From NCBI GenBank assembly GCA_951406725.2, contig OX597820.1, positions 73,222,001-73,286,000 on the forward strand: a stretch of DNA of 64,000 bases, read 5' to 3'. Position 1 is the first letter of the stretch. Each line of letters begins with the position of its first letter. This document shows positions 50,131 through 50,496 of the stretch, piece after piece. The notes below the pieces were generated by a model. The model was given only the letters and a program-made list of their open reading frames with translations, made no database searches and was not told where the DNA came from. The stretch comes from Octopus vulgaris. Lineage: Eukaryota. A program made the position numbers and the translations under genes.

Positions 50131-50132
<2 letters not shown>

Positions 50133-50492
50133 CGTGTCGTATTTTTGCCATTTCAATATGGCTAACCCCTAAGGGTGGATGCTACTGTAGTTTTTAGCCC
50201 CAGGAGGACACACTCCTCCAGCTGGCCATAGACACACTTTCTGTGTCCTGTCAGTATTTGCAAAGGGAAGTCATCCTTCCCGTCTTCAACTTATGATACA
50301 CACGGACTCGAGTTTCGAGGTATTGACCTCTCGTCAGCGTGTGACAATCATAGTTGTCGCCGAGAATTAGATTTCCTTCACAAATACTTATACTTTTTCC
50401 AGCGTCCACTGTCGCTGATATTGAAAAAGTGAAATCAAACAATGATAAATATCAATGTGAGTTATATACAGTAGCGGTAACACAACGTGTCG

Positions 50493-50496
<4 letters not shown>
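50131..50496 (-). mobile_element. 353-nt terminally redundant HHR-containing unit (retrozyme-like / solo pLTR)
   Basis: AACGTGTCGTATT at 50131-50143 and 50484-50496, pure (TA)n flanks, canonical HHR and multiple hairpins. Confidence 0.75.
50299..50343 (-). ncRNA. Canonical type I hammerhead ribozyme
   Basis: CACACG-CTGACGA-GAGGT caat ACCTC-GAAA-CTCGAG-TC-CGTGTG. Perfect 6-bp stem I, 5-bp stem II, palindromic stem III, GUC cleavage triplet. Confidence 0.93.

Follow-up and report, generated by a model that had tools for sequence, protein, structure and literature searches.

What is a 366-nt piece of non-coding DNA that opens and closes with the same 13 nucleotides, carries a hammerhead ribozyme motif and sits in a (TA)n repeat, and how did it come to be copied there? 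The question is raised by positions 50131..50496 of the window, the whole 64,000-nt stretch of Octopus vulgaris DNA that was analysed, in which the original prediction had seen a retrozyme copied from a circular RNA. Our preferred answer, to which we give a probability of roughly 0.62, is that the insertion is a 5′-truncated copy of a young, two-ended retrozyme, likely mobilised in trans by a Penelope-like element (PLE) and likely often copied from a monomeric RNA circle. The copy lies on the minus strand between (TA)n target tracts at 50072..50131 and 50496..50551, and is made up of one 353-nt monomer (50131..50483) and 13 nt of a second (50484..50496), with a fixed 3′ end at 50131 and a truncated 5′ end at 50496. 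The 13-mer, AACGTGTCGTATT, stands at 50131 and again at 50484 as had been predicted, a spacing equal to the 353-nt period of the family.

The ribozyme had been called a flawless type I hammerhead, and the match to Rfam Hammerhead_1 (RF00163) at 50299..50343 on the minus strand does span the full model (positions 1-45 of 45, 32.2 bits, E = 2.8e-6), with a predicted GUC cut between 50305 and 50304. The description is too generous for helix III (50306-50313), a short palindrome of sequence ACTCGAGT; hammerheads with such a weak palindromic helix III are described as having to dimerise for activity (PMC4209133). Because 32.2 bits falls just under the gathering score of 34 bits, a gathering scan of the whole window returned 0 hammerheads.

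The exact 45-nt ribozyme has 407 matches in the genome (control, 0), and a search of the own genome with the unit, in which the best 40 of 2258 candidates were scored, gave at least 152 matches, mostly 98-100% identical and many of them 353 nt apart. Copies are dispersed across many contigs, and full monomers differ from the column majority by 0.8%. The family is young, non-coding, inserted in (TA)n and often arranged head to tail in 353-nt arrays; such arrays, which the original prediction proposed looking for in the genome, reach six monomers per arm. A type I hammerhead is present in each monomer, the period falls within the 150-400 nt typical of non-LTR retrozymes, and there is no LTR, PBS or PPT, the last two judged from anatomy only. 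The retrozyme identity that had been proposed is borne out by the exact hammerheads, their presence in each monomer and the tandem arrays, and the unit is very probably a non-LTR retrozyme or a non-autonomous PLE. Several sister retrozyme families, at 73-86% identity, have both ends and the tandem and inverted anatomy in common with it; they include family B (U3-G8 core), the older family C and others (L137-L175, L225-L257 and L109:23-264), with thousands of search candidates. A B-type stub of a sister family, consisting of the tail and ~30 nt, lies in (TA)n at 38528-38605 of the window.

Anatomy was read from 80 of 90 family loci, after removal of nine that overlapped others and of L023, apparently a segmental duplicate; 56 of the 80 came from the exact-hammerhead list on C1-C3 and 24 from the best full-length matches. 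Whole retrozyme insertions duplicated together with their flanks were also encountered (L201, L202 and L015/L023; inverted, tandem, 1 Mb apart). With stray second fragments in L005, L031, L037 and L041 left out of the count, the 80 loci hold 122 arms, whose 3′ ends on the ribozyme strand fall at a site A in 69 cases, at a site B in 47 and elsewhere in six. A ends lie at unit positions 1-4 (50131..50134 in the window), and B ends at 303-315, nearly all at 308 or 311 (window 50438 and 50441). The two are 43-46 nt apart, (TA)n adjoins 108 of the 116 A or B ends, and B311 meets (TA)n exactly at 89 junctions. The segment between them (50438..50483) is a tail, by which other copies are lengthened from end A to end B. 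The 5′ ends, in contrast, are spread over the monomer, and a single one of the 122 comes within 5 nt of the predicted cleavage site, where a uniform spread would give 3.8; the distribution is biased by sampling for an intact hammerhead or full monomer. Arms are up to 2118 nt long, and 84 of the 122 exceed one monomer and 25 exceed two. As the starts are fixed and only the 5′ end varies, the 13-nt redundancy of the window copy is a truncation point, at which copying stopped in the second monomer. The piece at 50484..50496 has a rare allele (T at unit position 7) in common with the first monomer of the same copy. The circular permutation that had been predicted, with variable start points, is contradicted by the 116 of 122 arms that start at one of two fixed sites.

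Two other readings had been set beside the retrozyme: that the 13-mer is a plain target-site duplication (TSD), or that the unit is an ordinary pLTR on a PLE ORF. Genuine TSDs of the family are in fact of similar size, ~10-13 bp (among 10 loci, a clean 13 bp at one A+B insertion, 9-12 bp at another, one ambiguous case and none at the rest), yet the 13-mer is internal family sequence at every tandem junction. In 100 family loci the unit is nowhere flanked by a PLE ORF, the only attached ORF being that of a LINE inserted into the unit. Both readings are hardly credible on these grounds. A 3.25-kb spacing of hammerheads in L031 was considered as a possible PLE and rejected, as it reflects a satellite duplication.

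The two ends obey a strict rule when an insertion has two arms. Loci with one arm, as in the window copy, carry A in 28 cases, B in seven and another end in three. Among the 42 two-arm loci, both ends could be classified in 39, and each of the 39 has an A at one end and a B at the other (p = 1.8e-12 if ends were drawn independently). The same combination is found in 23 of 26 loci of the unbiased subset of two-arm loci, the other three having one broken end. A further 20 loci, selected for B from the 89 exact junctions, comprise 11 A+B, four with B and another end, five with a single arm and none with B+B, which brings the rule to 50 of 50 classifiable two-arm loci overall. One apparent B+B inversion (L201) proved to be a complete B+A element duplicated in inverted orientation.

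This anatomy, with 5′ truncation, an inverted arm and a tail at one end, is that of PLE insertions as described in PMC8557442, and in vitro the PLE tail corresponds to the distance between two internal reverse-transcription start sites (PMC11167929). The likeness to EN+ PLEs and their non-autonomous derivatives, among them MRC1 of Chlamydomonas, extends to tandems, inversion of the 5′ arm, AT-rich or (TA)n targets and a hammerhead upstream of the 3′ end (Craig, 2021, PMC8557442; Frangieh, 2024, PMC11167929). Unlike these elements, whose tails are reported as 30-40 nt, the unit has a tail of 43-46 nt and no ORF, and it shares no DNA homology with either autonomous family examined here. The PLE-type mobilisation that had been suggested thus finds its support in the A and B ends, the tail, the inverted arms and the (TA)n targets, and the sequences make it likely that a Penelope-like RT/GIY-YIG protein moves the unit in trans.

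Candidate drivers are present in the genome, where a GIY-YIG search that scored the best 150 of 6136 candidates revealed young autonomous PLEs. One family (L116-L132; for example L119:744-5960) encodes RT and GIY-YIG in a 781-aa frame, preceded by a frame of 479 aa, and has a pLTR of ~500 bp. Its two ends, also in (TA)n, are separated by 40 nt, two loci show B+A inversions, and by eye it carries a U3-A8 hammerhead-like motif with a palindromic helix III and a GUU site. A second family (L176-L200) has a 775-aa frame, more than 100 copies with identical protein, a tail of ~33 nt rich in A and C, a hammerhead-like core CCGAAGA, a (TA)n target and full head-to-tail tandems with a period of ~4271 from coordinates (G000:C1:27841626, 27845897 and 27850168). 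Across 70 PLE loci, comprising these two families and older PLE loci, no DNA homology to the unit was found, and alignment of the unit's tail with those of the two families gave p values of 0.09 and 0.98. Sister units occur near PLE loci (L109, L126 and L133) and look like separate insertions.

Folding likely bears on recognition of the RNA rather than on its topology. The ribozyme strand folds to −117.7 kcal/mol as a circle (−81.3 ± 5.3 in 100 shuffles) and to −124.1 kcal/mol as a linear molecule (−86.1 ± 5.5 in 100 shuffles), ~7 SD more stable than shuffles in both forms. As the circle gains nothing over the linear fold, folding says nothing for a circle, and circular folding as a sign of one was abandoned. 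The hairpins and both long-range complements that had been predicted are present where they had been placed. The claim that the complements are close only in a circularised unit did not hold, as GCTACTG and CAGTAGC come to lie ~65 nt apart across every tandem junction. In alignments of the sister families, the pair TTTCAATAT/ATATTGAAA is not kept, and neither is the TATATAA at 50462-50468, for which the reading as a TATA box was dropped.

Over eight sequences from three families, 92% of cells are paired and both sides have changed in eight of 44 pairs, these falling in the 7-bp helix CAGTAGC/GCTACTG, in three hairpins and in helices I and II of the hammerhead. Measures of pairing by cell exceed 500 of 500 shuffles; the pair-count covariation measure does not rise above shuffles (138/500), and the covariation comes from three lineages only. 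The 7-bp helix has its 5′ strand at 50182..50188 and its 3′ strand within the tail at 50469..50475, with 98% of cells paired and one compensatory pair over the three families. Since it brackets end A at any tandem junction, the helix is likely part of the fold recognised by the reverse transcriptase, and not a sign of circularity. A natural stretch of L050 with two hammerheads is predicted to fold as a double hammerhead (z = −10.1).

Which RNA was copied can be approached through variants, as the family, small and very young, has enough polymorphism for the history of its templates to be read in the genome. Seven common variants in 278 segments agree in 219 of 228 pairs within a locus, compared with 3822 of 35806 pairs between loci, and in 103 of 108 pairs between inverted arms. 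The common haplotype of A and B arms implies that priming at the two nicks used one and the same RNA, or at least one RNA species. Counted by variant and locus, 84 cases are fixed in all covering monomers, nine are partial and 176 are single, and in the 18 loci of sister family B the corresponding figures are 62, seven and 67. Fourteen variants private to one locus are fixed in 10 loci, 10 of the 14 across both arms; 16 rare variants repeat inside one arm, at 13 loci, and the distinct variants that are locus-wide at one locus or more number 29. Rare variants common to the monomers of one insertion mean that the lineage repeatedly passed through single-monomer templates. For a new mutation to reach every monomer of a locus, one monomer would have to be copied again and again, as happens directly on a circle, and the single-monomer templates were most simply circles. 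With the analysis confined to 80 loci, a private variant may be the haplotype of a parent outside the sample, so that such variants show bottlenecks of the lineage rather than the template of each insertion.

Could the arrays have grown as DNA, from monomers or solo pLTRs inserted singly and then expanded or homogenised by unequal crossing-over and gene conversion? A route of this kind is proposed in a 2026 preprint (bioRxiv 10.64898/2026.07.22.740005), and L003, in which two variants are confined to two adjacent monomers of four, would suit it. Against it are the 10 private variants common to inverted arms, the great excess of single over partial variants (176 compared with nine), the arrays themselves, which are dispersed, young and bounded by A and B ends, and the failure to find, among the 70 PLE loci, a parent PLE with a matching pLTR. 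We regard growth as DNA as very unlikely.

A closer competitor keeps the same non-autonomous PLE and replaces the circle with linear read-through transcripts, on which homology-guided jumps along terminally redundant RNA would lengthen arrays and spread variants, the hammerhead being mostly a passenger. It draws on variants present in a subset of monomers and often matched between arms, at five family-A loci (L003, L037, L043, L058 and L079); five sister-family loci also have subset variants of this kind. Such variants call for a multimeric template, linear or circular. It agrees further with PAc insertion in vitro, for which the ribozyme is dispensable and unprocessed RNA is the main substrate (PMC11167929). 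Our preferred reading must also reckon with the Xenopus retrozymes, of which eight of nine dimers showed no cleavage and one was cleaved (bioRxiv 10.64898/2026.07.22.740005). Linear templates would nevertheless need frequent seamless, in-register jumps to account for the 29 locus-wide variants and the six-monomer arms. A passenger hammerhead fits poorly with compensatory changes in helices I and II across families, or with variants being rarer in the ribozyme (0.58 compared with 1.02 events per site, partly a result of how loci were selected). We consider this linear account doubtful. The predicted copying of circular RNA is kept in part: the locus-wide rare variants speak for a single-monomer, circle-like template, and some loci need multimers. 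Judged from variant patterns, monomeric RNA circles were probably a frequent template, and their having been the sole template is improbable. Assembled contigs from four sequencing runs presumed to be RNA match stretches of an array but include neither ends nor joints, and they count neither for nor against a circle. Copying of circles for more than one unit was proposed in 2014 (PMC4209133).

In our preferred reading, the retrozyme circle moved by PLE machinery, tandem loci would be transcribed on the ribozyme strand, and two neighbouring hammerheads are predicted to dimerise through their palindromic helices III and to release a monomer of 353 nt. A ligase of the host would then circularise this monomer. 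The PLE protein would nick both strands of (TA)n ~10-13 nt apart, and reverse transcription would be primed internally in the conserved fold, at A or at B 43-46 nt downstream. From either site, copying would then continue for as many as six monomers, as the genomic anatomy shows, and stop at random. In the window copy, which has a single arm and an A end, it would have stopped after 366 nt.

The monomer is itself the target of another element. Two loci with a common non-family flank at unit position 233 led to a LINE of ~5.3 kb, with zf-CCHC in ORF1 and an APE endonuclease, RT and zf-RVT in ORF2, inserted in sense directly 5′ of the hammerhead (L067, L218 and L221-L257). From the order of its domains we take it to be an L1/Tx1-like element, probably of the Tx1 clade; matches in the protein atlas are to RVT_1/zf-RVT clusters only. 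All 18 exact matches of the LINE 3′ end continue into retrozyme sequence from position 233, in several subfamilies, and all 20 of the 5′ ends fetched (out of 53; 10 partners of known 3′ ends and the 10 that came next on the list) follow retrozyme sequence that stops just before helix I. TSDs of 16-22 nt are present in 10 of 10 pairs, with one mismatch allowed. The possibility that the junction is a chimera moved by PLE machinery was rejected, as the 5′ flanks and TSDs identify a site-specific insertion. The corresponding target, at 50344..50363 directly 5′ of helix I, is empty in the window copy. In 17 of 18 cases one partial monomer alone follows the LINE, as the linear-template account would expect if long linear RNAs were re-copied from their first start site. 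A further full-length LINE copy, in L221, is exceptional in its 5′ junction, which lies at position 324. At L241, compared with L235, the 5′ flank of one full-length LINE belongs, near the junction, to another retrozyme subfamily than the 3′ flank, as if upstream target sequence had been co-transcribed and copied.

Elements of the Tx1 clade that target other transposons are known (PMC4494074), including Tx1L in Tx1D and Tx1-Mar in Mariner-N4, as is Keno in U2, and the LINE described here resembles them in its use of one site in another repeat, its TSD of ~20 nt and its tandem insertion. It differs in its target, 20 nt in front of a retrozyme hammerhead. No Tx1 element with a hammerhead was found in the literature searched, a body of work that lay mostly outside subscription journals and repeat databases, and the targeting of the front of a ribozyme is apparently a separate and undescribed specificity. 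One tentative extension of our reading would see three tiers of parasites, in which a PLE dimer primes both nicks at two sites of one circle and rolls around it, while the LINE 20 nt before the hammerhead rides on the transcripts and has the ends of its RNA cut by neighbouring ribozymes.

The unit is a new member of a published class, the non-LTR retrozymes, which were described from coral, Mytilus galloprovincialis and axolotl as ~350-nt non-coding tandems with GC below 45%, one type I hammerhead per monomer, a weak palindromic helix III and co-occurring PLEs (Cervera and de la Pena, 2020, PMC7229834). In mussel the repeats are 350-390 bp, circles were seen on Northern blots and PLEs were proposed as drivers (PMC7229834). 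The accessible parts of that paper define no insertion ends, whereas the octopus family, known from the genome only, has a PLE tail, the A+B rule, (TA)n targeting and locus-wide haplotypes. Retrozymes of Xenopus related to pLTRs are likewise seen as PLE-derived, non-autonomous monomers, dimers and multimers (bioRxiv 10.64898/2026.07.22.740005). As presented in the accessible parts of the preprint, the case made for these vertebrate repeats relies on pLTR homology and co-occurrence; the octopus unit, for which no homology was found, is tied to PLEs by the anatomy of its insertions. The unit has no description from cephalopods in the literature searched, although supplements of PMC7229834, PMC13282606 and the 2026 preprint could list the family. 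Annotation of octopus repeats records recently active Penelope families, in a main text that, in its accessible parts, mentions neither ribozyme nor retrozyme (PMC13282606).

The origin of PLE tandems, inversions and tails is treated as an open question in the accessible parts of PMC8557442, and retrozyme circles have been proposed as transposition templates (PMC4209133; PMC7229834). To both, the family brings a strict rule, an A start paired with a B start in each inverted insertion and a common haplotype, which, together with the haplotype evidence and the ribozyme-targeting LINE, lifts it above a routine addition to its class. The 353-nt unit is also a substrate that can be tested in vitro with the intact PLE proteins of the same genome.

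The surroundings of the window copy are themselves rich in repeats. Directly past the right (TA)n flank, at 50552-51700, lies a decayed element, which we take from its motifs to be Tc1/mariner-like and for which Pfam gives only weak helix-turn-helix hints. An abundant SINE-like repeat with tandem duplications of 114 and 184 bp occurs at 8017-8245, 8770-9133 and 56068-56435, and a 5.1-kb AT/AC-rich microsatellite with strong GC skew occupies 38597-43699.
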